DNA of 64,000 nucleotides from a bacterium (GTDB taxonomy: Bacteria; Patescibacteriota; Microgenomatia; UBA8517), in assembly GCA_030583725.1 (NCBI GenBank), contig CP129472.1:75-64074 (forward strand), given 5' to 3'. Of the stretch, positions 34,585 through 55,172 are shown one piece after another. The notes under the pieces are model-generated. The model was not told where the DNA came from, ran no database searches, and saw only the letters and a list, made by a program, of their open reading frames with translations. The position numbers and the translations under genes are program-made. Each line of letters opens with the position of its first letter. The stretch's first letter is position 1.

Positions 34585-36318
34585 ATGCCCAATACTGCCA
34601 CTGCCAATGTAAATAAAACTGCGACGGGAAATAATCTTGCCGATATCTTAGTTTCTATGGGAGTTTTAGATAAGACCAGAGCTGACCAAGTTAAAATGGC
34701 TGAGGTCCAGTATGGTACTACTCAGGAGGAAATAATCAAAAAACAAAATCTAGTTAATAACACTGATCTTGTTAAGGCTAAGGCTACTTTTTATAACGTC
34801 CCCTTTGTAGATTTGGCAACTAGTCCTTCCTCCCCTGAGGCAATGTCAATACTTTCTCAAGAAGTTTCGAACAAATTTAATATATTTCCACTTGCAGTTG
34901 ATAAAACAGCCAAGAATATTACTCTGGCTATGGCCGATCCCCTTGATTTGACGGCTATAGAGTTTGTAGAGAGAAAAACAGGTTTAAGGGTTAAACCCGT
35001 AGCCGTTGAGGAAGATAAATTGGAAGATATTATTACAACTAGATATGCAAGTTCATTGTCGCAAGAGGTTACAGAAGCTTTAAAAGATGTAGCTCCAGAT
35101 AAAAAGGTAAGTACTAGTGAGAACCTTAAAATTGGTTTCATTAGAGAAGAAAAAATATCAGAAATTGTAACTCATATTTTGGAATTTGCAGTTAAGTCTC
35201 GTTCATCTGATATACATATTGAGCCTGAAGAAAGAGCGACTAGGGTTCGTTACAGGGTTGATGGAATATTGGTTGAAAAGTTGACTATTCCCAGAGAGCT
35301 TCACGAATCTTTAACATCGAGAATAAAAATACTTTCTGGTATGAAAATTGATGAAAAAAGAATACCACAAGACGGAAGGTTTAATTTTAAGGCTGCAAAT
35401 GAAGATACTGACCTTCGTGTTTCTTCACTTCCCACAGCATGGGGAGAAAAGATTGTTATGCGTTTGTTGAAAAAAACTGGTGGTGTTCCAGATTTACCAA
35501 CTCTTGGTCTTCGTGGCAAAGCCTTGAAAAACCTACAGGATGCAATTTTAAGACCTCATGGCATTATTTTAATTTGTGGACCAACTGGATCTGGTAAGAC
35601 CACAACACTTTACTCAATTATTAGTAAAATTAATACACCAAAGGTAAATATTGTAACTTTGGAAGACCCAATTGAATATAAAATGGTTGGTGTCAATCAG
35701 GTACAAATTAATCCAGCAGTTGGTTTAACATTTGCTTCTGGTTTAAAAGCTTTTTTAAGACAAGACCCCAACGTTATATTAGTTGGAGAAATACGTGATC
35801 AAGAAACTGCAGATCTTGCAATTCAAGCCTCATTAACAGGGCACTTAGTTTTTTCTACTCTTCACACCAATAACGCAGCAGGAGCACTTCCTAGGATGCT
35901 TGATATGGGTGCTGAACCTTACCTTTTAACATCGTCAATGACAGCAATAATGGCCCAGAGGGTTGCAAGAAAAATACACGAGGATTGTAAAGAGGAATTT
36001 ACTCCTGACCCCAAAATAGTTGAAGATATGAAAACAGTACTAGGACCACTTTGGCCAACAAATTCTGTTGGTAAAACATATAGAGGTAAAGGGTGCCAGG
36101 CCTGTGGAAATACTGGCTATTATGGCAGGGTTGGTATTTTTGAAGTTTTGCCAGTTTCTGATTCGATAGGTAAAATGATATTGGGAAGGTCACCTGCTGT
36201 TGAAATTGAAAAGAAAGCCAAAGAAGAAGGTATGATAACATTAAAACAGGATGGTTATTTAAAAGTTTTAGCAGGAGAAACGACGATTGAAGAAGTGTTA
36301 AGGGTGGCTCAAGAATAG
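34585..36318 (+). CDS. pilB: Type IV pilus assembly ATPase PilB (GspE family)
   Basis: GspII_E N-terminal region. Walker A GPTGSGKTT, Asp box, Walker B ILVGEIRD, His box, tetracysteine CxxC...CxxC (CQACGNTGYYGR). Confidence 0.9.
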   Translation: MPNTATANVNKTATGNNLADILVSMGVLDKTRADQVKMAEVQYGTTQEEIIKKQNLVNNTDLVKAKATFYNVPFVDLATSPSSPEAMSILSQEVSNKFNIFPLAVDKTAKNITLAMADPLDLTAIEFVERKTGLRVKPVAVEEDKLEDIITTRYASSLSQEVTEALKDVAPDKKVSTSENLKIGFIREEKISEIVTHILEFAVKSRSSDIHIEPEERATRVRYRVDGILVEKLTIPRELHESLTSRIKILSGMKIDEKRIPQDGRFNFKAANEDTDLRVSSLPTAWGEKIVMRLLKKTGGVPDLPTLGLRGKALKNLQDAILRPHGIILICGPTGSGKTTTLYSIISKINTPKVNIVTLEDPIEYKMVGVNQVQINPAVGLTFASGLKAFLRQDPNVILVGEIRDQETADLAIQASLTGHLVFSTLHTNNAAGALPRMLDMGAEPYLLTSSMTAIMAQRVARKIHEDCKEEFTPDPKIVEDMKTVLGPLWPTNSVGKTYRGKGCQACGNTGYYGRVGIFEVLPVSDSIGKMILGRSPAVEIEKKAKEEGMITLKQDGYLKVLAGETTIEEVLRVAQE

Positions 36319-36349
36319 TCTAAGGAATTTAAGTAAGAAAAATAAAAAT

Positions 36350-37414
36350 ATGATAAACCTAAAACATTTGTTACAACAAACGATTGACTTAAAGTCATCA
36401 GATCTACACCTTGTTGCGGGTGTTCCTCCAACTGTCAGAATTGATGGTGAACTTAAATCTTTGCCGGATACAGGACTTTTGACACCTGAGTTGGTTGCTG
36501 AAGGATTAAAACAAGTTATGACTTCAGAGCAAATTGAAAGATTAACAGTCAATAAAGAACTTGATTTCTCACTTTCTTTTGATGACAGGGCAAGGTTTAG
36601 GGTTAATGCATATACTCAGAAAGGATCTTTGGCTGCTGCTTTTAGAAGAATTCCACTTGAGATTCCCGAGATTGATAAATTAAATCTACCTAAGATAACA
36701 AGGAGCTTTACAGGTTTAAGACAAGGTTTGGTTTTAGTGACTGGTCCCACTGGACACGGCAAGTCAACAACCTTGGCTGCAATAATTAATGAAATCAATA
36801 AAAACAGGTCTTGCCACATAGTAACAATTGAAGATCCAGTCGAATTTGTTTTTAAACCTATCAAGTCAATTATTTCTCAGCGAGAGATGAGATCAGATAC
36901 TCACTCGTGGCAAGTTGCACTACGTTCTGTTTTGCGTGAAGACCCAGATGTTGTTTTAGTTGGCGAAATGAGAGATTTTGAAACAATTTCAGCAGCTTTA
37001 ACAATTGCTGAAACAGGCCATTTAGTTTTTGGAACCTTGCATACTAACTCAGCAGCTCAAACTATTGATAGAATTGTGGATGTTTTCCCAGAAGACCAAC
37101 AGGCCCAAGTCAGACTTCAGTTGTCATCTGTCTTAGAAGCAGTTTTCTCTCAAAGATTAATAACCGCTGTTGCTGGAGGAAGGGTTGTGGCCCATGAAGT
37201 GATGTTAGGGACAACTGCGATTAAAACTTCAATCAGAGAAGGTAAAACACATCAAATAGACTCAATTATTCAGACTTCTTTAGAAGTTGGTATGTCTACC
37301 CTTGAACATTCACTATCTGCATTGGTTAAGCAAGGAATAATTTCTATTGAAACTGCACAAGAGTGGACAGTAAGACCTGATGAGTTGAACAGGTTGATTA
37401 AAGGTACAAAATAA
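36350..37414 (+). CDS. pilT: Twitching-motility retraction ATPase PilT
   Basis: ASDLHL, Walker A GPTGHGKST, VLVGEMRD, GHLVFGTLHTNSA. Size 354 aa. Confidence 0.9.
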   Translation: MINLKHLLQQTIDLKSSDLHLVAGVPPTVRIDGELKSLPDTGLLTPELVAEGLKQVMTSEQIERLTVNKELDFSLSFDDRARFRVNAYTQKGSLAAAFRRIPLEIPEIDKLNLPKITRSFTGLRQGLVLVTGPTGHGKSTTLAAIINEINKNRSCHIVTIEDPVEFVFKPIKSIISQREMRSDTHSWQVALRSVLREDPDVVLVGEMRDFETISAALTIAETGHLVFGTLHTNSAAQTIDRIVDVFPEDQQAQVRLQLSSVLEAVFSQRLITAVAGGRVVAHEVMLGTTAIKTSIREGKTHQIDSIIQTSLEVGMSTLEHSLSALVKQGIISIETAQEWTVRPDELNRLIKGTK

Positions 37415-37430
37415 CATACAAGCTGCGTTT

Positions 37431-38636
37431 ATGAAAAGGTTTAACTACAAGGCAAAAGACAAATCCGGTAAATTAGTTACAGGAGAAGTGGAAGCTGTTA
37501 ATGATATGTTGGCGGCCAAGCTAGTTCGTGGAAAAGGACTTCTTGTCCTCTCAATTAAACAAACATATGAAAGCCCCATAACCTTTATCAGAAATCTAAA
37601 AAATAGAATAACACCTTCAGATGTTGCTACTTTTACAAGACAGTTGGCAACAATGGTCAATGCTGGTTTACCAATAACTGAGTCGTTAATTATATTAAAG
37701 TCTCAAGCTAAAGGGTCAATGGGTAAAGTAGTATCTCAAATACTTGCAGACATTGAGGGTGGCGAGTCAGTTTCAAAGGCGTTCGTGAAGCATCCAACTG
37801 TTTTTACTCCAACCTATATAGCTTTGGTTAAGTCAGGTGAGGCAGGAGGGGTTTTAGATACTGTTTTGGCTCGTCTTGCAGACGATATGGAAAAACAACA
37901 GGAATTTAAAGGTAAAGTTAAGGGAGCTTTAATTTATCCTACAATAATTATTATTGGTATGGTTATAGTTGCTTTTATAATGATGATTTTTGTTATCCCT
38001 CGCTTGACTTCGCTTTATGATGAGTTTAATGCAGAACTTCCCCTTCCTACAAAAATATTAATTGGTGTTTCTGATGCTGTTATAAAATTTTGGCCTGTTA
38101 CAATTGCTTTGGTTGTTGGGGCTGTTTATTCGTTTCAAGCGTATAGGAAAACGACACAAGGAAGACTGAAAACAGATCAACTACAGTTTAAAATACCAAT
38201 TTTTGGCGAGCTTCAAAAACAAGTTATATTAACAGAATTAACAAGTACGCTCTCTTTAATGACTGGTGCTGGTGTTTCAATTTTAGAAGGTTTAAATATT
38301 ACTGCAGACGTTGTCGGTAATGTGGTTATCAAAAATGCTATTAAGGATGTTGCGGTTCAGGTTGAGAAAGGATTTCCAGTTTCATTTGCATTCGCCAAAC
38401 ACCCAGAAGCTTTTCCTTTCATCCTTTCTCAAATGGTAGCAGTGGGAGAAGAAACTGGAAAAATGGAAGAGGTTTTGGGCAAAGTTAGTCATGTTTTTGC
38501 TGTTGAGTCAGATCAAAAGGTCAAAAGTTTAACTTCTGCAATTGAACCAATTGTTATGGTTATTTTGGGTTTGGGCGTAGGTTTTTTGGTAATTGCAATA
38601 ATTTTACCTATTTATAACTTGACTTCTCAATTCTAA
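37431..38636 (+). CDS. pilC: Type IV pilus platform protein PilC (GspF family)
   Basis: Two T2SSF repeats (QLATMVNAGLPITESL, LSLMTGAGVSILEGL) and 3 TM segments. 401 aa. Confidence 0.85.
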   Translation: MKRFNYKAKDKSGKLVTGEVEAVNDMLAAKLVRGKGLLVLSIKQTYESPITFIRNLKNRITPSDVATFTRQLATMVNAGLPITESLIILKSQAKGSMGKVVSQILADIEGGESVSKAFVKHPTVFTPTYIALVKSGEAGGVLDTVLARLADDMEKQQEFKGKVKGALIYPTIIIIGMVIVAFIMMIFVIPRLTSLYDEFNAELPLPTKILIGVSDAVIKFWPVTIALVVGAVYSFQAYRKTTQGRLKTDQLQFKIPIFGELQKQVILTELTSTLSLMTGAGVSILEGLNITADVVGNVVIKNAIKDVAVQVEKGFPVSFAFAKHPEAFPFILSQMVAVGEETGKMEEVLGKVSHVFAVESDQKVKSLTSAIEPIVMVILGLGVGFLVIAIILPIYNLTSQF

Positions 38637-38674: not shown

Positions 38675-39307
38675 ATAAATAAATTAAAAACAAAAAACAA
38701 AAAAGGTTTTACCTTGGTAGAACTTTTGATTGTAATTGGTTTACTTGGAGCAATTGCCTTAATTGTTATTGCTGCTATTAATCCTATTGAACAAGCAAAC
38801 AGAGCTCGCGACACAAGGTTTAAGTCAGATGCTGGTCAACTGATTTCCGCAATAGACAGATATTTTGCAGCTAATTCTAGATTTCCTTGGATGACAGTTA
38901 CACCTACTTACTCAACAGAAGACGAGTTTGGATTTGTAACCTCTTCCAGTCAAGAAGTCGGTCTTTGTGGTGCAACTTGTGCTGTCAATGGAGTCTTAAT
39001 AACCACCAATGAACTAAAAACAGAGTTTAGAAATAGAGATTTTGTTCAGGATGGTGGAGCAGGTGCAACACTAGATGAACAAATATTAATAGGTAAAGAG
39101 CAAGGTTCATCTGCATCAGTCTATGGTTGTTTTGTTCCTTTGGCTAATTCAACAAAACAAGTTGCAGTTACCGAAGGTAATGTTTACCAACCAAATACAT
39201 CAACTGGCGAAAAAGGTACTCCTGTTACAACTTGTGATGGAGCAGCAGGCGACGGAGCGGGTGTAAATTGGGTAACCAACGGTTGTTATGTTTGTATACC
39301 TCAGTAG
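38675..39307 (+). CDS. Type IV (pseudo)pilin, first of tandem array; probable non-ATG (ATA) initiation
   Basis: Class III signal ...KNKKG|FTLVELLIVIGLLGAIALI with Glu+5. The in-frame leader extends upstream of the only canonical start (TTG 38714) to a TGA at 38663-38665. AGGGAGGTGA lies 9 nt before ATA at 38675. Start coordinate uncertain. Confidence 0.6.
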   Translation: MNKLKTKNKKGFTLVELLIVIGLLGAIALIVIAAINPIEQANRARDTRFKSDAGQLISAIDRYFAANSRFPWMTVTPTYSTEDEFGFVTSSSQEVGLCGATCAVNGVLITTNELKTEFRNRDFVQDGGAGATLDEQILIGKEQGSSASVYGCFVPLANSTKQVAVTEGNVYQPNTSTGEKGTPVTTCDGAAGDGAGVNWVTNGCYVCIPQ

Positions 39308-39314
39308 TATAAGT

Positions 39315-40022
39315 ATGGAAGTTTATTTCATACTTATACTATTGGTTTTGGTAGCTTTGGCAATTGGCTCTTTTGTGTCAGCAGTCAGCTACCGTATTCC
39401 CAGAGATTTAAATTTTTCTAAAGGAAGATCTTTTTGTGACTTATGTCAGAAATACTTAAAATGGTATGACAATATTCCTTTATTTTCATACTTTTTTTAC
39501 TTTGGAAAATCAAGATGTTGTGGTCAAAAGATATCTATACGCTATCCACTAATTGAAGCCGCCTCAGTATTAGGAGCTTGTATTTTGTTTTTATTATTTC
39601 CGTTTTTAGAATTTATTCTTTACTATTCCCTCTTTGTTACATTACTTACAATATTGGTCATTGATATCGAGCATCAAATTATTCCTGATGAGCTTGTTTG
39701 GCTAACGTTACTAATTTCTATTTTAATAGTTAACACCTCACTTTTAACTACTTTGTTTTTTGCATTTCTTTTTTCAACGTTTCTCTTAAGTATCTATATA
39801 CTTACATCAGGAAAAGGTATGGGTTTGGGTGACGTAAAACTTGCAATTCCTTTAGGGTTAGTCTTAGGGCAAGAAAAAGGTTTAGTATGGTTATTGTCAA
39901 CTTTCATAATTGGTGGAATAGTAGCTTTATTCTTGCTAGTATTAAAGAAGGCAAAGTTAAAGACTAAAATTGCGTTTGGACCGTTCATGATAGTAGCTTT
40001 TTGGATTACGTTAATGTTATGA
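39315..40022 (+). CDS. pilD: Prepilin peptidase PilD (A24 family)
   Basis: N-terminal TM, zinc-binding tetracysteine motif CDLCQKYL...CCGQ, and about 6 TM with the catalytic-Asp region. ATG at 39315. Confidence 0.8.
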   Translation: MEVYFILILLVLVALAIGSFVSAVSYRIPRDLNFSKGRSFCDLCQKYLKWYDNIPLFSYFFYFGKSRCCGQKISIRYPLIEAASVLGACILFLLFPFLEFILYYSLFVTLLTILVIDIEHQIIPDELVWLTLLISILIVNTSLLTTLFFAFLFSTFLLSIYILTSGKGMGLGDVKLAIPLGLVLGQEKGLVWLLSTFIIGGIVALFLLVLKKAKLKTKIAFGPFMIVAFWITLML

Positions 40023-40660
40023 AAAAAAATATTAAAGGCTTTACTCTAACAGAGCTGTTAATAGTTGTGGGCTTGCTCTCATTTTTAGCGCTTCTAATTA
40101 TTCTCTTTTTAAGAAATCAAGTTCACAAGGGAAATGACGCTAGAAGAAAAGCTGAGATCAAAAGAATTGGTATTGCTGCAGAGGAATATGAAAAAGATAA
40201 CGATTGCTATCCCCTTTCAAGTCTTGTGGCCTGCAATCCTGGTAGTGGTTTATTACCATATTTGGATAAAATCCCTTGTGATCCTGTAACTAAGGCCTCT
40301 TATCTCTATGAACATGAAGATTCAAGTTGTCCAAAGTGGTATAGGATTTATGGCAGACTTGATAATGAGTCAGACGTAGATAGTACCCCTTATATTGGTC
40401 CTAACTCTGCATTTGACTATGTTTACTCAAGTCCAAATGCACCCGGAGTTGTTCCGGATGTACCAGCGCCTACAGCTAGTGGCGGAGGTGGAGGTGGAGC
40501 AGGTCAAACTACTTTCTATGGCTGTTTTAGTGGGTCTTGTATGGTCGTCCAATGGGATGTATCAAGGCCTGGTCCTGCTTGTGATCCGAACTTTCAAAAC
40601 CCAACCTGCTATGGACAATGTTCAAATTTAAATAACGAATGTCAACCTTGGAATCAATAA
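40019..40660 (+). CDS. Prepilin-type protein with Gly-rich C-terminal region
   Basis: MKKNIKG|FTLTELLIVVGLL. Start overlaps the pilD stop (ATGA). SGGGGGGAGQ and a Cys-rich tail. Confidence 0.65.
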   Translation: MKKNIKGFTLTELLIVVGLLSFLALLIILFLRNQVHKGNDARRKAEIKRIGIAAEEYEKDNDCYPLSSLVACNPGSGLLPYLDKIPCDPVTKASYLYEHEDSSCPKWYRIYGRLDNESDVDSTPYIGPNSAFDYVYSSPNAPGVVPDVPAPTASGGGGGGAGQTTFYGCFSGSCMVVQWDVSRPGPACDPNFQNPTCYGQCSNLNNECQPWNQ

Positions 40661-40670: not shown

Positions 40671-41177
40671 ATGAAAATCAAACCATTTACATTAGTTGAA
40701 ACAAAACTATTAGCATTTATATTTTTGGTGTTGTTTGTGGTTATTGGGTTTAATATGTCAATTTCTTTAAGGCGCGGTAGGGATGCCACAAGAAAAAATG
40801 ATATTTCAGCAATTCAAAAGGGATTAGATACCTACTATCAAAAGTATCGTATTTATCCCCAATCTACATCTGATGGAAAAATGATTGGATGTTTTACTGA
40901 AGAAGCTGTGACAGACATACTAACTGGATTACCATTAAATGTGGAGGTTTGTAATTGGGGTGAATCTAATTTTGAGGGTATGTCCCCTATGCCTAGGGAT
41001 CCAAGTGATAAAAAAGGTGTAAGTTACAAGTATGTTTCAGACGAGAAAAGCTATGGTTTTTATGTTTCTTTAGAAGGTAAGGATGAACCTGAATATAATT
41101 TAGGAACACAACAATTAGGATTGCAATGTGGCACTAAAGTATGCAATTATGGAAGAGTAGTTGAAAATGAAATATAG
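40671..41177 (+). CDS. Prepilin-like protein (atypical leader MKIKP|FTLVETKLL)
   Basis: N-terminal hydrophobic helix and Glu+5-like arrangement. RGRDATRKNDIS motif shared with neighbours. Confidence 0.55.
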   Translation: MKIKPFTLVETKLLAFIFLVLFVVIGFNMSISLRRGRDATRKNDISAIQKGLDTYYQKYRIYPQSTSDGKMIGCFTEEAVTDILTGLPLNVEVCNWGESNFEGMSPMPRDPSDKKGVSYKYVSDEKSYGFYVSLEGKDEPEYNLGTQQLGLQCGTKVCNYGRVVENEI

Positions 41178-41622
41178 TAAGCAAAACTTGGCCAGTAAAA
41201 CTGGTAAAAAAGGATTTACATTAGTTGAACTTTTAGTAGCAATGGCAATTATTGGAGTTTTGGCTGCAATGGCTGTTGGTAGTTTTAGAACTGCACAATT
41301 AAGGGGTAGGGATACACAGAGAAAGTCTGATCTAAAACAGGTTTCAAATGCTTTAGAACTTTATTATGCTGATTATGGAAGGTATCCTGATAGTTTGACT
41401 TGGGGTGGAGAGTTTACTGATGGCAGAACAATTTACTTTAAGGTTTTACCAACTGACCCATCTGGTGGTGTATACACCTATACTCTAGTTGGTGCTTCTA
41501 CCCAAAAATACCAGCTTTTTGCAAGACTTGAAAATACTGAAGATCAAGACTGTATACAAGACAACTGTGCGCAGAATCCCAATTTTGCAGTTACTAGTGC
41601 TAATACAACAGCAACAGAGTAA
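41161..41622 (+). CDS. Type IV pilin / GspG-like pseudopilin
   Basis: KKG|FTLVELLVAMAIIGVLAA...RGRDTQRKSDLKQVSNALELYYADYGRYPD (GspG-like). Confidence 0.75.
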   Translation: MKMKYSKQNLASKTGKKGFTLVELLVAMAIIGVLAAMAVGSFRTAQLRGRDTQRKSDLKQVSNALELYYADYGRYPDSLTWGGEFTDGRTIYFKVLPTDPSGGVYTYTLVGASTQKYQLFARLENTEDQDCIQDNCAQNPNFAVTSANTTATE

Positions 41623-41668: not shown

Positions 41669-42121
41669 ATGAACAACAAAACAAAAAAAGGTTTTACCTT
41701 AGTCGAATTACTGGTCGTAGTTTCTTTAATTGGAGTTTTGGCAACTTTAGTTATTGCAAATATGAACTCAGCCAGAGAAAGGGCTAGAGATACTCAAAGA
41801 AAATCAGATTTTAGGAATATCCAAACAGCATTAAGGCTTTATTACAATGATAATGGAGGCTATCCAACCAGTAGTACAGATAATATTGTTGGCTGCGATG
41901 GTAATTGTGTATGGGGAGAGTCTTGGGTGAATGATGACGTGACTTATATGAACATATTGCCTGATGATCCCCTATCAAACCAGATATATAAATATACCTA
42001 TATAGATGATGATGATTATATACTTGAGGCTTGTCTTGAAAATGTCAGTGATGACAAAGGAATTGCAACCACTGACCTGGATTGGTGCCCGACTGGTTGG
42101 AAGTATGAAGTAAAACCATAA
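41669..42121 (+). CDS. Type IV pilin / GspG-like pseudopilin
   Basis: MNNKTKKG|FTLVELLVVVSLIGVLA...RARDTQRKSDFRNIQTALRLYYNDNGGYP. Confidence 0.75.
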   Translation: MNNKTKKGFTLVELLVVVSLIGVLATLVIANMNSARERARDTQRKSDFRNIQTALRLYYNDNGGYPTSSTDNIVGCDGNCVWGESWVNDDVTYMNILPDDPLSNQIYKYTYIDDDDYILEACLENVSDDKGIATTDLDWCPTGWKYEVKP

Positions 42122-48048: not shown

Positions 48049-48093
48049 ATTATGGTGCCACTTCTGCCCATTTGGCCCTTTTGAATTGAAGTT
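48049..48093. repeat. Copy 3 of conserved ~45-nt element (forms the last 12 codons and stop of CDS 48050-49675)
   Basis: Reverse complement encodes ...LQFKRAKWAEVAP*. Confidence 0.7.
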
Positions 48094-49675
48094 GATTTGG
48101 GAAAAGCATCATTTGATCAGGTGCAAATTCAACAAGTTCTGCAGGAGTTGAGTTGTCTAGTAGTTCTCTTTCTAGCAATACACTACCATATGAGGCCAAG
48201 GATCCTCTTAAGTGCAGTTGTGTATCCCCTGCCCCTGTTGATATATTATTATCAGCCATATAAATTCCTTCAATCGCAGGACTACCACTAACTGCAGAAT
48301 CAATTGTTATATTTCCATTTACAAAGCTTGCAAAAAAACCAACTCCATCTGTTAGGTTTATATTACCGTTGATATTAAAGTTGCCTTCTTCAACAAACAA
48401 GACTACTTTTCTGGTAGTTATATCAATATCCCCCACAGTATCTAAGTTGCCAACAACCTTGTACCACTCATATCCATTTGAATCAACAACTACTCCCCCA
48501 CTTGGTAAGTCATTAATGTCATTAAAAACAATATCGTTAGGTATTAAATTTTCAAAATAACTATAATTAAATATTCTACTTAATGTTGAAGTAGTATTAG
48601 CATTCCAAATATTAACAGATATCCTTTCAGGAGTGTCTAAGTATAAATTAAGAGAAGTACCATAGACTGCAACACCTGAAAAACCACCTAAGCCATCACT
48701 TAAGAAATAATTACCAGCGGGAACTAAAGAACTTAATACCCCATTTGTTGTAACATCACCATCCATTACTTGCCACCATGGCTCGTTTGCAACAGGTGTT
48801 AAAAAACTATAATTTGTAGAAGAAGAACAACTTACACTTTGATAATTAACAATTTTTACAAAGTAAATGGTATCAGGAAGTAGGGGTGAAACAAAAGGAT
48901 AGAAGTCAGTACTACTTGCCAAATTTGCATTAACAGTACAACTAGTTCCTGTACCACAATTATTAGTTACATCGCTTTGCGTAGTTGAAACATATAAATT
49001 TTGAGACGCTCCATTAGTACCAGTTGTCCAAGTTAATAAATCATCACTAAAACTTACAGCAGAAGGTGCTGTGGTATTACAAGTAGAAAGACACTCATAG
49101 GTGTTGGCTGTGCGTCCGCTACATGTTGTAGTAGCAGGCCAACAATCCCATCTAATACAACTAGTTCTACCCGTATTTGGGTTGGTCCAATACTGTTCAC
49201 ATTCTCCACAACCTGCGGGTGTTGTTGTACATCCACACTCTGATCCTTCACTTTGTGCCGATCCTAGTTGAAACCATCCATTACAATGCCAGATCGAACC
49301 CTTACTTACACACTGTGAACCAATCAGATTATTTGTCTTTACTGTCCCCGAAGGACAGTTTACGACCCATGTGGGGTTGCATTGCGACTCACAACTTCTA
49401 CAACTCCCATTATTCGTCGTCCCGCACGGGCACGCGCTAGGGGGTGGAGTTGCACTACCACCACAGTTATCACCCCAAAGTGTGCAGGATGGTGATGAAC
49501 CACCAGAACAGTTGTCTGCTCCGCCACATGTACAATCACCACTTGCTTCTGAGCCACTTGAGGTTACACATATACAATCATCCAAACATTGAGCATTTAC
49601 ATCTTTTGTGGAAAAACCAAAAAGAAAAAAAATTGCAAAAATTAGAAATAATATAATTTTAAATATTTTTGACAT
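48050..49675 (-). CDS. Large secreted Cys-rich hypothetical protein
   Basis: Signal peptide (MSKIFKIILFLIFAIFFLFGFS). About 40 Cys in the N-terminal 200 aa. No domain recognised. Confidence 0.55.
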   Translation of the reverse strand: MSKIFKIILFLIFAIFFLFGFSTKDVNAQCLDDCICVTSSGSEASGDCTCGGADNCSGGSSPSCTLWGDNCGGSATPPPSACPCGTTNNGSCRSCESQCNPTWVVNCPSGTVKTNNLIGSQCVSKGSIWHCNGWFQLGSAQSEGSECGCTTTPAGCGECEQYWTNPNTGRTSCIRWDCWPATTTCSGRTANTYECLSTCNTTAPSAVSFSDDLLTWTTGTNGASQNLYVSTTQSDVTNNCGTGTSCTVNANLASSTDFYPFVSPLLPDTIYFVKIVNYQSVSCSSSTNYSFLTPVANEPWWQVMDGDVTTNGVLSSLVPAGNYFLSDGLGGFSGVAVYGTSLNLYLDTPERISVNIWNANTTSTLSRIFNYSYFENLIPNDIVFNDINDLPSGGVVVDSNGYEWYKVVGNLDTVGDIDITTRKVVLFVEEGNFNINGNINLTDGVGFFASFVNGNITIDSAVSGSPAIEGIYMADNNISTGAGDTQLHLRGSLASYGSVLLERELLDNSTPAELVEFAPDQMMLFPNQLQFKRAKWAEVAP

Positions 49676-50147
49676 ATATTGGTAATTTGAAAAAATTATT
49701 AAACTGATTTTGTTGTGTTACTTCTTCCTTTCCTTGATAGAATTGAATTACATTTAAAGTATATTCTTTAATTTGATGTTCTGCATCACTAGATCTTAAA
49801 ACATTTTCTGATACGTAAATATAAATCAAAACCTCGTTTAAACTTAATATGTCAATTGTTGATCCAAAGTCTATTTTTTGATTGTCATCTATATATTGAT
49901 AACTTGGTCTTACTTTGTCTGTATAGACTATCGCAATGGACTTGGGTTTAATTCCTTTAATTAAAAATTTGTTTAATTTTAAAGAAAAATTTAAGTAAAT
50001 ATCAAGAATTATAGGGTTCTTGTTTTCAATCCTCAAAGACCCAATTCTTGAGTTGAAAAAAACTGGCGTGGAAGTTAATTTTAAATAAAAAACAACTGAA
50101 GCCAAAAACAAAACAAACAAACTTGAAAAAATAATTAACTTTTTCAT
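49659..50147 (-). CDS. Hypothetical membrane-anchored protein
   Basis: N-terminal TM helix. 162 aa. Overlaps the downstream gene by 17 nt. Confidence 0.45.
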   Translation of the reverse strand: MKKLIIFSSLFVLFLASVVFYLKLTSTPVFFNSRIGSLRIENKNPIILDIYLNFSLKLNKFLIKGIKPKSIAIVYTDKVRPSYQYIDDNQKIDFGSTIDILSLNEVLIYIYVSENVLRSSDAEHQIKEYTLNVIQFYQGKEEVTQQNQFNNFFKLPIYVKNI

Positions 50148-50175: not shown

Positions 50176-51891
50176 TTATTGTGAAGGGTCTTTGAAATTT
50201 ATTCCCTCGATTTCTAAAAAGTTCCGTGATTGACGGGCATATGATCTTAAATTTGATTTACCAGCGACCATCATTCCCATAGAATCAAATATTCTGTATA
50301 CAACTTGAGCTTCGTAGAAGTCAGTTATCATTTTTCTATCAGAATCATTTAATGTGTGGCTATCATTATTGTATCCCCAACGTTCTGCTGCTGTTGATAT
50401 AGAGTAGATGACTATCTGTCCATTTGGTTTGGTCCATAATAAATAACCAAAGGTACTATCGACAATTGTATTTTTAGATTTTTGATCATTAATTAAATCA
50501 TTTTTAATTTCATCTGGTAGTGAATTATATTCATCCGCAGTCATTATCGTTCTAATTTCTATTGGTAGATTAAAATTTGCAGGGTGCTCCAGTGATTTCA
50601 TCTTGGAAGTCGCATACGGATCAGATCTAACGCCATAGGCAACTTTAAAGTTAAATATTCCATCATTTTTAACCATTACATGCTCAAATGCTTGTTCTGG
50701 GGTGGCAAAACCCAATTGATGTGCCAGTGAGTTCCACATATTGGCGTCATTTTTGCCTTCTGGCATTCCTACAATTCCTTTTGAGGTTCGGTCAGTAACT
50801 GAAAAAATACCAGTAGAACTCCATTTTGGATCAATGTAAGTATAGAAACTATGGTCATTACCTTCACCGTCTTTGACAATATGTTCCCCCACTCTTGTCA
50901 TCCTCATTTGTCCATCAATTTCCATTTCCATAGCAATAACTTGTTTAGTTTCATCACTCTTAATGCCATATATAACTTTAGTATCAACCCCATTTACTTG
51001 TTTTACACCATATTCAAACGTTTCAAATTGATTTTTATATTTATCTGTCATTTCAGCTGGAAATACAACGCCCCCAACAGGCACCTCAACTTTAACAAGT
51101 GAGGCCATTTTTACATTGAATATCTCTTGTGGTGACACAAGTAAACCTCCTGGTATGAAAAGTATATCTCGTGCCTCAATTTCTTCATTGGTCATCTGTG
51201 AAAGTTCAACTTCTGTCAACTCCGTGTTAAAAATCATAATAGATTTATCCAAATCCGCACCCGTAGCTGGATCCTGAGTTATACCAAGTCCTACTCTTCC
51301 TTCGGCATCAATAATCCTGTTTAAAACAATATAGATAACTTCACCCTGGTCTCCGCCAAAGATCATTGCTGTTCTACTTTTTTCTTCAACTTCAGAAGTG
51401 GCATTAAAGAATACATAAGTTGTTTCTTTTCCAGTAATGTCAACTGTTTTAACTCCAGATGCGGAGTATTCAATTGTGCTTGGATCTTCAAAAAGGTCTT
51501 TTATTCGTTGGTCCTCACCAAAGGCTCTAAACGGACCAGGTAGTTTGGAAATTATTTCGGATTCTTCAACAAACTCATAGGACATTGTAGCGTTGACTTC
51601 ACTAGTGGAAGTTGGAATTACAAACGGTTTTTCTGTTGGGGCAATTTCAGTCGTATTTTGATTATTTGATGATGTTACTTCAGGATTTATACCGTTTTTT
51701 ATACATGCCAATGATGTCCCAGCTATTGCTGCAGTGAGACTACCCCTGATAAACAATTTTGTTGTGTCTGTTAATCTATCGCTCATATTTAATTTATCAA
51801 CTTGTTTTTCTATTATTCCCTCAACACCAATATTCCATAAATCTGATTGACTAATTCTTCTCCCTAACCGTATTATTCTATCCTTATTCAT
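50176..51891 (-). CDS. Large hypothetical protein (571 aa), probably exported
   Basis: Weak signal-like segment (SLTAAIAGTSLACIKNG, lipobox-like). No domain recognised. Confidence 0.5.
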   Translation of the reverse strand: MNKDRIIRLGRRISQSDLWNIGVEGIIEKQVDKLNMSDRLTDTTKLFIRGSLTAAIAGTSLACIKNGINPEVTSSNNQNTTEIAPTEKPFVIPTSTSEVNATMSYEFVEESEIISKLPGPFRAFGEDQRIKDLFEDPSTIEYSASGVKTVDITGKETTYVFFNATSEVEEKSRTAMIFGGDQGEVIYIVLNRIIDAEGRVGLGITQDPATGADLDKSIMIFNTELTEVELSQMTNEEIEARDILFIPGGLLVSPQEIFNVKMASLVKVEVPVGGVVFPAEMTDKYKNQFETFEYGVKQVNGVDTKVIYGIKSDETKQVIAMEMEIDGQMRMTRVGEHIVKDGEGNDHSFYTYIDPKWSSTGIFSVTDRTSKGIVGMPEGKNDANMWNSLAHQLGFATPEQAFEHVMVKNDGIFNFKVAYGVRSDPYATSKMKSLEHPANFNLPIEIRTIMTADEYNSLPDEIKNDLINDQKSKNTIVDSTFGYLLWTKPNGQIVIYSISTAAERWGYNNDSHTLNDSDRKMITDFYEAQVVYRIFDSMGMMVAGKSNLRSYARQSRNFLEIEGINFKDPSQ

Positions 51892-52075: not shown

Positions 52076-52897
52076 ATGACAAGAAAGAACCAAAAAGGTC
52101 AGGCTGTTTTAGTTGTTCTTTTGTCATTGTCTGTAGTTTTGATTATAGTTTTGTTCATCCTCTCTCGTTCAATTACTGATATTTCCCTTTCAACTAAAGA
52201 AGAAGACTCACTTCGTGCTTTTTCTGCAGCTGAAGCTGGTGTTGAGAGGGCTTTGGTTATTGGTAATAGTAGTGGAAGTCTAGATGATGCTGAGTTTAGT
52301 GCTTTGGTTACTCAATTTGCCAGTGGGGCTGATCAAGTTACCTACCCACTTGCCTTAAAGTCTGGTGAAAATGCCGTTTTCTGGTTTAAAAGAGCTGGAG
52401 AGGTAACTCAGTTTAATGGAAGTAATATTAGATTCTGCTGGGGAAATGCTGGTACTAACCCTGCAGACAGTGATACTCCTGCCTTGGAAGTTACTTTTTA
52501 CTACACTACCCTACCTGATGATATGACAACCCTACAAATTGAAAGGGCTGTCTATGACCCCAATGTTTCAAGGGTTACTGCAAACCGTTTTGATAATGCA
52601 CAAATTTCAAGTTGTACAATAGGACAAGATAGTTTTGCTTTTCAAGCAACTATTGACACTCCTACTGGTACCTTAGAATATGCAACTGCAAAACTTTTGT
52701 ACAACACCACAAATGCACATAAAGTGGGTATAAATGTGGCTTCAACTGGCTCAATTCTTCCTTCTCAGGGTGAAAAAGTTGAGTCTGCAGGTTCATATGG
52801 GGATGCAAACAGAAGTATAGAAGTATATCAATTGCATCCTGAAACCCCACCCATTTTTGCTAATGCAATCTTTAGCGCAAATGGTATAGTTAAGTAA
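52076..52897 (+). CDS. PilX-like type IV pilus assembly protein
   Basis: N-terminal QKGQAVLVVLLSLSVVLIIVLFILS followed by AFSAAEAGVERAL matches the PilX N-terminal pattern. Directly upstream of pilMNO. Confidence 0.55.
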   Translation: MTRKNQKGQAVLVVLLSLSVVLIIVLFILSRSITDISLSTKEEDSLRAFSAAEAGVERALVIGNSSGSLDDAEFSALVTQFASGADQVTYPLALKSGENAVFWFKRAGEVTQFNGSNIRFCWGNAGTNPADSDTPALEVTFYYTTLPDDMTTLQIERAVYDPNVSRVTANRFDNAQISSCTIGQDSFAFQATIDTPTGTLEYATAKLLYNTTNAHKVGINVASTGSILPSQGEKVESAGSYGDANRSIEVYQLHPETPPIFANAIFSANGIVK

Positions 52898-52913: not shown

Positions 52914-53921
52914 ATGGTCGGAATAGATATAGGAACAAAAAGTATTAAAATTATTGAACTTGCCCAAAGTGGCAATTCTTGGGTGTTAAAAGCTTCAGGG
53001 GCAGTTGGTTATGCTGGTGTTTCTCCTGATAAGGCACAAACAGATGAAGAATTAAATGCAGTTTCAGAAGTTTTAAAAAAAATTATTAACCAGATAGGTG
53101 TTAACACAAAGGACGTTAACTTGTCTTTGCCTGAATCCTTAGTTTTTACCCGTGTCATTAAGTTTCCATTACTTTCAGATGAAGAAGTATCAGCTGCAGT
53201 TAAGTGGGAAGCTGAACAATATATACCTATACCCACCGCAGAAGCTGTCATCCAATATACAGTTTTAAGTAGAAATGAAACCACTTCCCAAACATCAGTC
53301 CTTCTAGTTGCAGCCCCAAAGGCAATTGTTGAAAAATATGTCAAAGTGGCAAGACTTGCAGGCTTAACACCTGTTGCTGCAGAAACTGAACTAACTGCCA
53401 TGGCAAGGTCACTCTCACCTGATAAAGGTGTATCTCTTCTTTTAGACTTAGGTTCATCTGCGACTGATATGTCAATTGTCAAAGATACAAAAGTAGTTTT
53501 TACAAGATCCATACCTGTTGCTGGTGAAGCTTTTACAAGAGCGGTCTCACAAGGTTTGGGTATTAATGCCCAACAGGCTGAGGAGTACAAAAAAACATAT
53601 GGACTATCAACAGATCAATTAGAAGGAAAGGTAAGGCAAGCACTTGAACCTATTTTTAAAATGGTAATTGATGAAATCAAAAAAGCAATTCATTTCTATC
53701 AGTCTGAGGAAAAAGGAGATACTCCAACTTCAGTAATTATCACAGGGGGTGCTTCAACAATGCCTGATATTGTTACCTATTTAACAGAAAGCTTAGGAAT
53801 TGAAACAGTTGTAGGTAGTCCGTTTGCAAAAATAAATCTTGACTCTGAAACCTTGAAAGGTTTAGCTCCATATGCTTCAATCTATGCTGCAGCTGTGGGG
53901 CTAGCTATGCGCAATGAATAA
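52914..53921 (+). CDS. pilM: Type IV pilus assembly protein PilM (actin-like ATPase fold)
   Basis: MVGIDIGTKSIKIIELAQ, LLLDLGSSATDMSIV, IITGGAST. Confidence 0.85.
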   Translation: MVGIDIGTKSIKIIELAQSGNSWVLKASGAVGYAGVSPDKAQTDEELNAVSEVLKKIINQIGVNTKDVNLSLPESLVFTRVIKFPLLSDEEVSAAVKWEAEQYIPIPTAEAVIQYTVLSRNETTSQTSVLLVAAPKAIVEKYVKVARLAGLTPVAAETELTAMARSLSPDKGVSLLLDLGSSATDMSIVKDTKVVFTRSIPVAGEAFTRAVSQGLGINAQQAEEYKKTYGLSTDQLEGKVRQALEPIFKMVIDEIKKAIHFYQSEEKGDTPTSVIITGGASTMPDIVTYLTESLGIETVVGSPFAKINLDSETLKGLAPYASIYAAAVGLAMRNE

Positions 53922-54489
53922 TACTATGGAAAATCAAAGCTTGCCAGTTCGTGGTAAAAATATAAACTTAATTCCAACAGAAATGGCAGTACCTGCACGT
54001 GCTGTCAAAGTGGCTAAAGTAATATCTAAATTTTCAGTAGTTGGTTCGATTGTACTTTTGCTAGTAATCCTCTCTTTAGGTTCATATTATATTTATTTGC
54101 GCTTAGAAAATGAGAAAGTTACTTCAAGCGTTAACACTTTAAAGCAAACCATTTCAGACTTGAGCCAAAACGAACAAAAATTAATTTTGGCAAAAGATAG
54201 ATTATCAAAAATAACTGTGGTCAGAAAAGCAGAATCTGCAAATTCTGAGGTTAAAAGATATCAAAATTTTTTAAGTCAAGTTGTTGGCACTGTGGGTACT
54301 CAAATTACAGAGGCAACCCTTACCACCAAAGGAACTGAGATTACTATAACAGCAGATAGTTCTCAAAATTTGTCAGGGATACTTAAAACAATATCAAATG
54401 TGCTGGAGTACGAAAGAATAGTTGTATCATCCTTAGCTTATAATCCTGGGTCAGGTTTTGTAGCGAACATCCTATTCGAAAATAAGTAA
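53914..54489 (+). CDS. pilN: PilN-like type IV pilus assembly protein
   Basis: Short cytoplasmic N-terminus, single TM (VVGSIVLLLVILSLGSYYIYL), periplasmic coiled coil. Overlaps pilM by 8 nt. Confidence 0.6.
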   Translation: MNNTMENQSLPVRGKNINLIPTEMAVPARAVKVAKVISKFSVVGSIVLLLVILSLGSYYIYLRLENEKVTSSVNTLKQTISDLSQNEQKLILAKDRLSKITVVRKAESANSEVKRYQNFLSQVVGTVGTQITEATLTTKGTEITITADSSQNLSGILKTISNVLEYERIVVSSLAYNPGSGFVANILFENK

Positions 54490-54494
54490 ACAAT

Positions 54495-55172
54495 ATGAAC
54501 ACAAATACTAAAAACGAAATCAACTTTCTTTTAAAGCCTGTAATTATTTTTTCTTCAGTTTTAATTCTAATTATTTTTTCTTTTGTTATTGGTTTAAGAA
54601 ATATATCCAATTTGCAAAGCAATATAACAGCAAACAAGACAACAGAAAACACATTGTCTAAAAAAGTATTGGCTTTAGAAACTGTTAGTAGGACCCTACC
54701 AGGAGATGTTACTTTTTTGGATGTGGTTTTACCAAGTAAAGGTTCAGTTTTATATGCTCTAAGTCAGATCAGAACACAATCTTTAAATAATAATTTAAAC
54801 GTTTCAAACCTAAAAACAGGAAATGTAATACCTGAAAGTTCTGGAGTCATGAAGTCTTCAGTTAGCTTCGAGGTAGAAGGTCAAGAGTCTGACGTTTTTA
54901 CTTTTTTAAGTTCTTTGGGTACAGTACTCCCTTTAATTAATATTGATAAAGTTAGTTTTAATAGCTCTCTTGGATTATCAAGGGCTAATATATCAGTTAA
55001 TGTCTATTCAGCAGAACTTCCTAAAACAATACCATCTTTAACAGGTGTTGTTAGTGAGTTAACAAGTCAAGACATCACTCTTTTAAATGAGTTGGCAGGG
55101 TATACTTTGCCACAATTTATAGAACCAACAATTGAAGAAGCTCCATCACAGAAAACTGATCCATTTAACTAA
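54495..55172 (+). CDS. pilO: PilO-like type IV pilus assembly protein
   Basis: Single TM (VIIFSSVLILIIFSFVIG) then periplasmic domain. Position after pilM/pilN. Confidence 0.55.
   Translation: MNTNTKNEINFLLKPVIIFSSVLILIIFSFVIGLRNISNLQSNITANKTTENTLSKKVLALETVSRTLPGDVTFLDVVLPSKGSVLYALSQIRTQSLNNNLNVSNLKTGNVIPESSGVMKSSVSFEVEGQESDVFTFLSSLGTVLPLINIDKVSFNSSLGLSRANISVNVYSAELPKTIPSLTGVVSELTSQDITLLNELAGYTLPQFIEPTIEEAPSQKTDPFN

Follow-up and report, generated by a model that had tools for sequence, protein, structure and literature searches.

A minus-strand block of genes divides the type IV pilus (T4P) locus of an ultrasmall Candidatus Woesebacteria bacterium (Microgenomates, CPR/Patescibacteria), which raises the question of what kind of pilus the locus encodes and how it came to be split. 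We analyzed a 64,000-nucleotide stretch (the window) of this metagenome-assembled genome, whose lineage was assigned from named homologues and the titles of related loci. In the window, positions 34585-55172 carry, in order on the plus strand, genes for PilB, PilT, PilC, pilin 1, PilD, nine further pilin-like proteins, a PilX_N-type protein, and PilM, PilN and PilO. A first-pass annotation had placed all core T4P genes, including both pilB and pilT, on the plus strand, with pilD directly behind the first pilin gene and pilX/pilMNO set apart by a minus-strand block. This layout was borne out in gene order, coordinates and strand, and 7.6 kb separate the stop codon of pilin 10 (44486) from the start of pilX (52076). 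The ATGA/TAATG-type overlaps that it described are also present, and distances between genes range from −11 to +46 nt. The best explanation of the data, taken whole, is a complete, secretin-less (monoderm-type), retractile type IVa-like pilus whose locus is split by an old insertion, and we hold this reading with high confidence.

Machinery genes

The PilB-type extension ATPase (34585..36318, 577 aa) matches the Pfam domains T2SSE (E = 4.7e-127) and MshEN. Its top NCBIfam match is type_IV_pilB (560 bits, under the 675-bit equivalog cut-off), with GspE at 553 bits. The PilT-type retraction ATPase (36350..37414, 354 aa) scores 444 bits against the 319-bit cut-off of TIGR01420 (pilT_fam) and has the motif AIKTSIREGK, comparable to AIRNLIRE. 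Read directly from the sequences, the Walker A motifs are GPTGSGKTT in PilB and GPTGHGKST in PilT. The PilC platform protein (37431..38636, 401 aa) contains two T2SSF stretches (E = 1.8e-61) and scores 346 bits with the NCBIfam GspF model and 327 bits with the PilC model. PilD, the prepilin peptidase/N-methyltransferase (39315..40022), matches A24_N_bact (E = 6e-26) and Peptidase_A24 (E = 3.8e-14), and its sequence has the Asp motifs IDIEHQIIPD and GLGDVKL and four N-terminal Cys residues. Its ORF is open from 39288, and the gene callers' start is 39315.

Beyond the block, the plus strand resumes with a PilX_N-type (GspK/PilX-like) minor pilin (52076..52897) that has a G|QAVLV leader without Glu+5 and matches the GspK N-terminal model weakly (E = 0.0083). 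Its orthologues in relatives (55-81% identity) adjoin pilM on its upstream side, and 11 of 21 match PilX_N (best E = 6.9e-5). PilM (52914..53921) matches PilM_2 (E = 1.3e-52) and TIGR01175 (190 bits vs a cut-off of 133). The window's PilN and PilO proteins had no match in Pfam searches, and a PDB sequence search with PilN also gave none. PilN (53914..54489) has INLxP near its N-terminus, followed by a TM helix and a coiled coil; in this motif L19 and P21 are invariant and I17 and N18 at least 90% conserved, and 6 of 22 orthologues (34-69% identity) match Pfam PilN (best E = 4.3e-7). PilO (54495..55172; 43-68% identity to orthologues) was recognized by comparing its orthologue profile to Myxococcus xanthus PilO (3jc8, E = 2.7e-8); the value for Pseudomonas aeruginosa PilO (2rjz) was 0.065.

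No secretin was found in the 64 kb of genome covered. In CPR bacteria PilB/T/C/M/N/O/D are reported to be co-localised, PilQ being absent (PMC6744442), and T4P locus 1 of TM7x has the same parts list as the Woesebacteria locus (PMC11623550). The cluster is complete and usual for its lineage: Woesebacteria loci have 5-12 pilins each, with exactly one pilin before pilD in 31 of 34. Thus the embedded pilD and the ten pilins that the first-pass annotation singled out are real, but they are the standard layout of Woesebacteria. The novelties are minor, namely a pilin family without Gly-1 and a recurrent gene cassette.

Pilins and the hairpin behind pilin 1

Class III leaders had been proposed for all ten pilins. 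Nine have the canonical Gly-1 and fit G|[FYLQ]xxxE; the exception is pilin 3 (40671..41177), which has Pro at −1 (MKIKP|FTLVE) and had no match in a Pfam search. Judged from an alignment of its family (A11, MKxF[ST]KxE), in which F+1 is near-invariant, E+5 is invariant and Gly never occurs at −1, pilin 3 is a member of a conserved non-canonical pilin family. The RxRDxxRK[SN]D motif reported as shared by several pilins occurs in pilins 1 and 3-7, with a degenerate version in pilin 2 (40019..40660; G|FTLTELL, N_methyl E = 1.4e-5), which has 10 Cys residues and a Gly-rich linker. Pilins 4 (41167..41622), 5 (41669..42121) and 7 (42606..43061) are GspG-like, with matches to N_methyl (E = 4.6e-10, 7e-8 and 7.4e-9) and T2SSG (E = 1.4e-5, 3.6e-5 and 1.9e-5). 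Pilin 6 (42121..42594; N_methyl E = 1.3e-6) is a GspG-like paralogue with 32-38% identity to pilins 4, 5 and 7.

The last three pilins before the block resemble minor pilins. Pilin 8 (43058..43528) is GspH/FimU-like and matches N_methyl; it is present in 29 of 29 loci, and 8 of 19 orthologues match Pfam GspH (best E = 4.9e-6). Pilin 9 (43518..43964; G|QSMFE) has a weak N_methyl match (16.6 bits vs a cut-off of 21.2); 16 of its 21 orthologues match N_methyl, and all 21 orthologues of pilin 10 (43992..44486; G|LSLVE) match this model. For both proteins typing reached the N-terminal helix and no further, so that pilin 9 is GspI/PilV-like, and pilin 10 GspJ/PilW-like, by position only.

Pilin 1 (38675..39307, leader MNKLKTKNKKG|FTLVELL) is probably the major pilin. 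It has orthologues in 29 of 29 complete loci, and its share of Gly, Ala, Ser and Thr is the highest among the pilins, pilin 7 excepted. Between the in-frame TGA at 38663 and G|FTLVELL, the reading frame contains no ATG, GTG or TTG, and the only candidate starts are ATA codons at 38672 and 38675, preceded by a Shine-Dalgarno sequence (GGAGGTG, 38659-38665). NCBI/PGAP places the start at ATA 38675 (WKZ26128.1, a 210-aa product), and the DNA of this region is identical in two other, independent assemblies. ATA is a weak initiator, which is odd for a supposedly abundant major pilin.

Behind pilin 1 lies a 20-bp hairpin with a U-rich stretch after it (39301..39345, plus strand); it overlaps the stop codon of pilin 1 as well as the ATG of PilD (39315). 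Its minimum free energy is −29.1 kcal/mol (z = −6.4), and none of 200 shuffled sequences folded as well. Strong hairpins are also frequent 3' of pilin 1 orthologues in relatives (n = 38), where the minimum free energy averages −16.8 behind pilin 1, compared with −11.9 behind PilD and −10.2 behind PilC. The hairpin is probably an attenuator or terminator.

The interposed minus-strand block

The first-pass annotation had suspected that the segment at 44.5-52 kb, which cuts the locus, is an insertion. The direction of this suspicion was right, because 43 of 65 informative related Woesebacteria loci have one contiguous operon (pilB-T-C, pilin1, pilD, pilins, pilX, pilMNO), which makes the minus-strand block the derived state. 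It is not a recent cut, since the closest relatives share it: all informative members of the PilM clade to which the window belongs have a homologous block, or at least its cassette, at this place. In eight loci the block separates pilin 10 from pilX (L003, L004, L005, L010, L011, L013, L014 and L018), and in L015 and L017 it is found on the upstream side of pilX, where pilins are absent within 10 kb. Among informative loci, a minus-strand block at this junction is confined to the window's PilM clade. The insertion that splits the locus in two is therefore old and clade-wide.

The core of the block, about half of it (48050-51891), is a co-oriented cassette of three genes: the first encodes a probable lipoprotein of large size and mosaic make-up, the second a small membrane protein, and the third a secreted protein whose beta-rich C-terminal domain is conserved. 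Gene 1 (big571, 50176..51891, minus strand) is divergent from pilX and has the sequence ...AGTSLA|C. Among 1.84e9 representatives big571 had only 35 matches, its N-half and C-half matching different proteins, and it is tied to the proteins of L003, L004 and L005 by single-linkage BLAST only. Its structural model has a pLDDT of 80, with two domains above 90, and Foldseek found no match to it in PDB or BFVD. Gene 2 (49659..50147, minus strand) encodes a protein with an N-terminal TM helix and overlaps gene 3 by 17 nt; a co-oriented ORF of 140-270 aa lies immediately 5' of big541 in 38 loci, with highly divergent sequences. Gene 3 (big541, 48050..49675, minus strand) has a signal peptide, a Cys-rich variable region, a beta-sandwich and, at its C-terminus, a conserved domain (roughly residues 295-541; pLDDT 80-96 over residues 371-530). 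Pfam and NCBIfam searches with big541 found no family match. Its orthologues at the same position in L003, L004 and L005 are 41-42% identical, and the family as a whole is conserved towards the C-terminus but variable towards the N-terminus.

Could the cassette be a functional part of the pilus, such as a non-pilin adhesin or host-recognition module presented by, or cooperating with, the pilin 8-9-10/PilX tip? An analogue would be PilY1, which is encoded within the fimU-pilVWXY1 minor-pilin operon, and the cassette too sits between minor pilin genes, exactly between the J-like and K-like ones throughout the clade. It also occurs at a second junction, pilX|pilM (L130, L141, L148 and L155), and in both orientations (plus strand in L050 and L059), which suggests repeated placement. 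Export is predicted for each of the three products, and big571 resembles a receptor-binding protein in its mosaic build and fast evolution. Of 45 long loci with the big541 domain, an unbiased sample, 17 lie within a T4P locus, a figure inflated by vertical inheritance; the other side of this count is that 28 of the 45 long metagenome loci have no T4P gene within 10 kb of the cassette, and so we consider the cassette autonomous. Moreover, the 43 contiguous Woesebacteria loci lack it, so the pilus works without it, and the junction also gathers toxin-antitoxin genes (AbiEii/DUF6922, HicAB, Fic, HepT/MNT), as in a permissive hotspot. No similarity in structure between a cassette protein and PilY1 or any solved adhesin was found. 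On balance a role in the pilus seems unlikely.

Type of pilus and history of the locus

A type II secretion or competence (Com-type) pseudopilus, in place of a retractile surface pilus, is very improbable. Pilins 3-7 are indeed GspG-like (T2SSG matches; PulG in some sources), PilC has its top score with GspF and PilB scores almost as high with GspE as with PilB, pilin 4 just touches the ComP_DUS cut-off (27.4 vs 27.3 bits), and CPR bacteria are thought likely to scavenge DNA (PMC6744442, PMC10633639). But a bona fide PilT well above its cut-off lies between pilB and pilC, PilM/N/O are present instead of GspL/M/C, the 64 kb covered showed no secretin, the ComGA and ComGB models stay under their cut-offs, and the first pilin (199 aa, six Cys) is unlike ComGC/GspG major subunits. 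DNA uptake through a retractile T4P fits our main explanation and needs no separate machine.

In such a retractile pilus, PilD would process nine prepilins by cutting off their short basic leaders behind Gly-1, and PilB, acting on the PilC platform and held by a PilM-PilN-PilO alignment complex, would polymerise the major subunit, pilin 1. The filament may be primed and capped by pilins 8, 9 and 10 with PilX, in GspH-I-J-K order, and PilT would retract the fibre. The GspG-like paralogues (pilins 2 and 4-7), whose copy number differs among relatives, may be alternative or low-abundance subunits. Pilin 1 has its own strong Shine-Dalgarno sequence, and the stable hairpin behind it would also sequester the pilD start, so that much pilin and little downstream product would be made. 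By analogy with Saccharibacteria, the proposed roles are host or surface attachment, twitching and/or DNA capture.

As for the history of the locus, the ancestor of Woesebacteria had all pilus genes in one co-directional operon, and an autonomous three-gene operon entered between pilin 10 and pilX in the ancestor of the subclade. As a result, pilX-pilMNO would be transcribed from the divergent intergenic region (51892-52075), in which a promoter scan gave 96 sites vs 66 expected and was not discriminating. Afterwards this junction also gained a toxin-antitoxin pair (AbiEii/DUF6922) and genes for a 393-aa orphan protein and a coiled-coil protein.

These genes occupy 44483-48015, a segment that is a later accretion, consistent with the lower GC content at 44-47 kb (0.316-0.318). 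The AbiEii-family nucleotidyltransferase toxin (44483..45130, minus strand; Pfam AbiEii E = 1.2e-14; PADLOC AbiEii) overlaps pilin 10 convergently by 4 nt. The DUF6922 protein beside it (45156..45446, minus strand; PF21956, E = 3.8e-7), presumably its partner, adjoins AbiEii in 9 related loci. The 393-aa orphan (45745..46926, minus strand) has a HELSH motif and is possibly a metallopeptidase; Pfam, PHROG and PADLOC searches gave no match, and there is no homologue in relatives from the genome collection, including all members of the window's clade (L003-L005 among them). Homologues do occur in three metagenome loci; in L095 and L163 they adjoin the cassette, and in L141 they are close to it. 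The 143-aa coiled-coil protein (47584..48015, minus strand) contains about nine LKTDVSG heptad repeats, has family matches of coiled-coil type only, and is preceded directly by a promoter-like site (11/12 positions, 48049-48022). That the whole 7.6-kb block is instead a recent mobile-element insertion, leaving pilX-pilMNO unexpressed and the pilus non-functional, is scarcely credible despite its opposite strand, its toxin-antitoxin module, its reduced GC and the tail-to-tail overlap of pilin 10 and AbiEii, which leaves no space for a terminator: the block showed no integrase, transposase or repeat boundaries (PHROG matches were only coiled-coil noise), the pilus ORFs on both flanks are intact and conserved, which indicates continued selection, and the idea is largely refuted by synteny, the core of the block being common to all informative relatives with 63-86% PilM identity.

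Pilus machinery and its layout in Woesebacteria

The first-pass annotation described a split type IV pilus (T4P) super-locus at 34585-55172 of the window, and its gene calls and coordinates proved correct, by Pfam and NCBIfam matches and, for PilN, PilO and PilX, by orthologue alignments. On the plus strand, 14 tightly packed genes (34585-44486, spacing -11 to +46 nt) code for PilB, PilT, PilC, pilin 1, PilD and nine more pilin-like proteins, in that order. Beyond a minus-strand block (44483-51891), four further plus-strand genes code for a 273-aa PilX_N-type protein (52076-52897, called PilX here), PilM, PilN and PilO. Rfam and ARAGORN found no RNA genes in the locus. PilB has T2SSE (E = 4.7e-127) and MshEN domains, and its top NCBIfam match is type_IV_pilB at 560 bits, below the equivalog cut-off of 675, with GspE at 553. 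PilT matches TIGR01420 over its full length (4-344; 444 bits, cut-off 319), PilC has two T2SSF stretches (PF00482, E = 1.8e-61), PilD matches A24_N_bact (E = 6e-26) and Peptidase_A24 (E = 3.8e-14) with both Asp motifs visible in its sequence, and PilM matches PilM_2 (E = 1.3e-52) and TIGR01175 (190, cut-off 133). The two small bitopic proteins of the window have no direct Pfam match and were identified as PilN and PilO from orthologue alignments. An INLxP motif is conserved in the PilN alignment, with L19 and P21 invariant and I17 and N18 at 90% or more, Pfam PilN is matched by 6 of 22 orthologues (best E = 4.3e-7), and a PilO orthologue profile matches Myxococcus xanthus PilO (3jc8, E = 2.7e-8). 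PilX_N is matched by 11 of the 21 PilX orthologues; the window's PilX has Gly-1 but Val at +5, so it is without Glu+5. Profile searches against PDB sequences returned nothing for PilN or PilX.

Judged by its genes, the Woesebacteria system is a monoderm-type T4aP, for which we found every defining feature that could be tested, and it is predicted to make a retractable surface filament. A type II secretion system fails as a description, because no secretin (PilQ/GspD) and no GspC, GspL or GspM was found among the ORFs scanned (18-58 kb of the window, itself 64 kb of the genome) and PilT is present. A Com system fails likewise, because the ComGA and ComGB models score 257 and 129 bits, under their cut-offs of 300 and 240. 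By analogy with Saccharibacteria, the filament may act in attachment, motility and/or DNA capture. Monoderm T4a pili, such as those of the Clostridium and Streptococcus sanguinis pil loci, use a secretin-less PilB/T/C/D/M/N/O set with several pilins in one operon. The window shares this set and the retraction ATPase with them, but its pilin complement is larger, its GspH-I-J-K-like set ends in a PilX_N protein, and the sequences are distant.

PilM homologues of the window are named as Patescibacteria or Candidatus Woesebacteria. A PilM profile scan of GTDB species representatives gave 80 loci, almost all from Woesebacteria/Microgenomates, which we annotated with the window's proteins and with profiles. 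Gene order is constant in the 29 complete contiguous loci (pilB-pilT-pilC, pilin 1, pilD, pilins, pilX, pilM-pilN-pilO), and the stretch from pilC to pilX contains 5-12 pilin genes. Pilins 1, 8, 9 and 10 occur in 28-29 of these loci, pilins 6, 3 and 7 in 25-28, and pilins 2, 4 and 5 in only 16-17, and in 31 of 34 loci a single pilin gene precedes pilD. The first-pass description is essentially right. Its super-locus features are those of the lineage, and ten pilins with an embedded pilD are therefore the standard Woesebacteria design and not a peculiarity of this genome. The pilus locus is real, complete and well conserved. Together with the approximately 80 related loci it provides a clean reference architecture for the Woesebacteria pilus: pilin 1 and the pilin 8-9-10-PilX set form an invariant core, pilin 3 is near-universal (in 25 of the 29 complete loci), and the GspG-like paralogues make up a variable block.

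Many of the Woesebacteria-like MAG contigs in this set (L007-L086) are titled 'uncultured Gammaproteobacteria bacterium', and single records go under Alphaproteobacteria, Bdellovibrionales or Bathyarchaeia, apparently through mislabelling by the submitters. Divergent from pilB, a minus-strand gene (32412-34391) codes for a 659-aa secreted CHAP + SH3 + Big_7 protein, a putative peptidoglycan hydrolase that could serve in host-wall attack or pilus passage. Farther upstream on the minus strand are the genes for GyrB (29184-31121) and GyrA (21093-25148; 1351 aa), the latter carrying an intein (Intein_splicing, residues 117-587).

The pilin array

Pilin 1 (38675-39307) has no ATG, GTG or TTG between an in-frame TGA at 38663 and its G|FTLVELL cleavage site. 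Its only candidate starts are ATA 38672 and ATA 38675, lying 6 and 9 nt past a strong Shine-Dalgarno sequence, GGAGGTG (38659-38665), the only strong one in the array. NCBI starts the protein at ATA 38675 (WKZ26128.1, 210 aa, 'prepilin-type N-terminal cleavage/methylation domain-containing protein'), and several pilin 1 orthologues have TTG or GTG starts. We ruled out a sequencing error behind the missing start codon, because the DNA of the start region (38659-38716) is identical in three assemblies (the window's own and two independent ones from other samples). Genetic code 25 (UGA = Gly), suggested by the upstream in-frame TGA, was ruled out because the other genes all read normally under code 11.

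Across the pilin 1 stop codon and the pilD ATG lies a perfect 20-bp hairpin with a U-rich tail (39301-39345; MFE -29.1 kcal/mol, z = -6.4). Comparable hairpins follow pilin 1 orthologues in many relatives, where several resemble intrinsic terminators, and mean MFE is -16.8 after pilin 1 but weaker after pilD (-11.9) and pilC (-10.2; n = 38). This hairpin was the sole standout of a sigma-70/terminator scan, which gave 96 sites, scarcely more than the shuffled expectation of 66 +/- 8, and defined no promoters for pilX-pilMNO. A pilin gene followed by a hairpin is the classic layout for overproducing a major pilin relative to downstream genes. From its place as the universal first pilin, its Shine-Dalgarno sequence, its high content of Gly, Ala, Ser and Thr (38.5%) and the downstream hairpin, we infer that pilin 1 is the bulk subunit, with the ATA start arguing for caution. 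An ATA-initiated probable major pilin with a hairpin after its gene is modestly new.

All ten array genes had been credited with class III leaders. With the N-termini anchored on the cleavage motif, Gly-1 and Glu+5 are indeed present in nine, the exception being pilin 3 (40671-41177), whose leader reads MKIKP|FTLVE and so has Pro-1. The pilin 3 orthologues from approximately 45 loci and 64 database homologues all start MK-x-F-[ST]-K-x-E: Phe+1 is nearly invariant and Glu+5 invariant, while position -1 is P, F, L, K, Q, S or R but never Gly. Pro-1 is therefore no local mutation. The family also has four invariant Cys residues, and its gene is located after pilD in the 25 complete Woesebacteria loci that have it. 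Gly-1 is the one residue that prepilin peptidases require, so this conserved pilin-like family probably escapes canonical processing. As a pilin-like subunit it may join or control the pilus without being cut by PilD, and could be an uncleaved, membrane-retained anchor or terminator of assembly. We regard this G-less family, too, as modestly new.

The shared RxRDxxRK[SN]D motif noted in the first-pass annotation occurs in pilins 1 and 3-7, with a degenerate form in pilin 2; pilins 2-7 are mutual paralogues (25-44% identity). At the far end of the array, Pfam GspH is matched by 8 of 19 orthologues of pilin 8, whereas pilins 9 and 10 (the latter at 43992-44486) match only as a generic N-terminal helix, and PDB sequence profile searches with pilins 8-10 hit this shared helix and nothing beyond it. 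The proteobacterial minor-pilin operon is fimU-pilV-pilW-pilX-pilY1-pilE, and the tip complex of type II secretion systems is GspH-I-J-K. Because pilin 8 is GspH-like and the last gene codes for a PilX_N/GspK-like protein without Glu+5, the terminal four pilin-like genes of the window probably follow the H-I-J-K order, with pilins 9 and 10 assigned to I and J by position only.

Among CPR bacteria, no host-contact organelle is better supported than the type IV pilus, and to our knowledge experimental work on it within the CPR is confined to the class Saccharibacteria. Across the CPR, PilB, PilT, PilC, PilM, PilN, PilO and PilD are co-localised without PilQ (Méheust et al., PMC6744442). For cultivated Saccharibacteria the pili are essential, serving in host attachment and twitching (PMC10633639, PMC9894109), and T4P locus 1 of Nanosynbacter lyticus TM7x has the same gene set with five pilins, and PilX-type pilins without a PilD signal (PMC11623550). 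With these pili the window shares the co-localised set with several pilins and no PilQ (PMC11623550, PMC9894109, PMC10633639, PMC6744442), a large pilin of the PilX type that lacks the canonical PilD signal, a number of minor pilins similar to T2SS pseudopilins, and a CPR host lineage. It differs in having ten pilins in one array instead of five pilin genes, a fixed order (pilB-T-C, pilin, pilD, pilins, pilX, pilMNO), the conserved Gly-1-less family, and an interruption of the locus by a surface-protein cassette. Woesebacteria also belong to another CPR class, Microgenomates, and the globular domains of their pilins are unrelated in sequence to those of TM7x.

The interposed cassette

The conserved core of the minus-strand block, the cassette (48050-51891), comprises three co-oriented, partly overlapping genes transcribed away from pilX. 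The first, big571 (50176-51891), codes for a probable lipoprotein (signal ...AGTSLA|C), and its counterparts in relatives have clearer lipoboxes or Tat motifs. Only 35 matches to it were found among 1.84 billion representative proteins, and its N-terminal and C-terminal halves match different proteins, so it is a mosaic. Direct BLAST of big571 against the proteins in the same slot of three relatives (L003-L005) found no similarity; they are linked by single-linkage clustering alone. Given that clustering and the mosaic match pattern, replacement by an unrelated gene is at most a tentative reading of this slot. The AlphaFold model of big571 is confident (pLDDT 80, two domains above 90), but Foldseek found nothing credible in PDB (best probability 0.33, TM <= 0.1) or BFVD. 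The second gene (49659-50147) codes for a small protein with one N-terminal transmembrane helix, whose counterparts elsewhere are extremely divergent. The third, big541 (48050-49675), codes for a protein that starts with a Sec signal, followed by a disordered Cys-rich region, then a beta-sandwich and finally a conserved C-terminal part of approximately 245 residues, within which residues 371-530 reach pLDDT 80-96 in the model. Its orthologues at this place in L003, L004 and L005 share 41-42% identity with it, and family members elsewhere have TSP1, Hint or Ig-like N-terminal domains instead. Searches with its model gave generic FN3 matches and weak matches to ice-binding/pectate-lyase beta-helices (E >= 0.02). 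What is modestly new here is a recurrent cassette whose large protein is confidently modelled with no structural match.

The first-pass annotation asked whether 44.5-52 kb is an insertion. Among 65 informative loci, pilin 10 and pilX are contiguous in 43 and separated by one small extra gene in two. A block containing big541 lies between them on the minus strand in eight (L003, L004, L005, L010, L011, L013, L014 and L018) and on the plus strand in two. In four loci, L015 and L017 among them, big541 is upstream of pilX with no pilins within 10 kb, and the last six simply have no pilin in the 10 kb upstream. A PilM tree built by neighbour joining places the window with L003-L018, a clade in which every informative member has the cassette upstream of pilX, and nearly all other clades are contiguous. 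Because contiguity prevails and the block is confined nearly to the window's clade, the split is derived. The interposed DNA is thus inserted, but not recently: its cassette is shared across the clade, and the split is older than the divergence of relatives whose PilM is only 63-86% identical.

The cassette is enriched at the pilus locus but does not depend on it. In a scan of metagenome contigs with a big541 profile, which is unbiased by pilus genes, we annotated 45 loci of at least 6 kb. T4P genes lie within 10 kb of the cassette in 17, where it is always at the minor-pilin end, usually between pilin 10 and pilX, though four loci (L130, L141, L148 and L155) have it between pilX and pilM. In L050 and L059 the cassette is on the plus strand. 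The other 28 loci have the large-small-big541 unit with no pilus gene nearby, so the cassette is autonomous. Our main reading is of an accessory surface-protein operon in a permissive junction that also gathers toxin-antitoxin (TA) genes; the split is an old, clade-level insertion of this autonomous cassette, with TA accretion afterwards. The consistent position of the cassette in the 17 pilus-bearing loci keeps alive a minority view, that it is a pilus-associated adhesin module, but the 28 loci without a pilus gene and the 43 pilus loci that manage without a cassette make this unlikely. As in the fimU-pilE operon, large non-pilin genes are embedded beside pilX, but here they are on the opposite strand, their products have no similarity to PilY1, and they also occur away from pili.

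A conceivable role for the cassette is that of a portable host-recognition module, plugged repeatedly by Woesebacteria into the minor-pilin end of the operon; in that case pilus tip and hypervariable surface receptor would be passed on and exchanged as a unit. That the G-less pilin 3 family and a portable cassette both represent new biology is a joint reading that we consider improbable. The overall picture of CPR pili is unchanged by this locus, which shows where accessory genes are tolerated or attracted; the G-less family and the fast-evolving cassette are candidate host-specificity determinants in uncultivated Microgenomates.

The remaining four genes, in 3.5 kb between the cassette and pilin 10, have the lowest GC content of the region (0.316-0.318). 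This part is missing from the closest relatives except for an AbiEii/DUF6922 pair in L005, which suggests that it is a later accretion. The AbiEii toxin gene (44483-45130, minus strand; Pfam E = 1.2e-14, also detected by PADLOC) has, like the AbiE type IV TA (abortive infection) systems, a nucleotidyltransferase domain and a small upstream partner gene. The partner's product, a putative antitoxin by position, is DUF6922 and not a recognisable AbiEi, and has no PADLOC match. The pair occurs at the pilin 10/pilX junction in nine related loci, and other relatives instead carry genes for Fic, HepT/MNT, HicAB, ParE or KilA-N, placed at the array or within it. Searches of the seven block proteins against PHROGs and PADLOC returned only AbiEii and coiled-coil noise, with no sign of a prophage and no known defence system beyond the TA pair.

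Some relatives have toxin or accessory genes inserted in pilin arrays that are otherwise undisrupted: KilA-N in L003 and L091, and ParE with a small partner in L005. In the window, a minus-strand gene at 47584-48015 codes for a 143-aa coiled-coil protein with approximately nine tandem LKTDVSG heptads. It has its own near-consensus promoter-like site (48049-48022, 11 of 12 positions), and its one weak match among the relatives examined is downstream of the pilus locus in L005. Next to it are 657 bp (46927-47583) with no ORF of at least 90 aa and no Rfam match, and then a gene for a 393-aa orphan protein with a HELSH motif (45745-46926, minus strand). A strong promoter-like site at 47491-47464, also on the minus strand, matches at 11 of 12 positions, has an extended -10 TG and is oriented toward this orphan gene.
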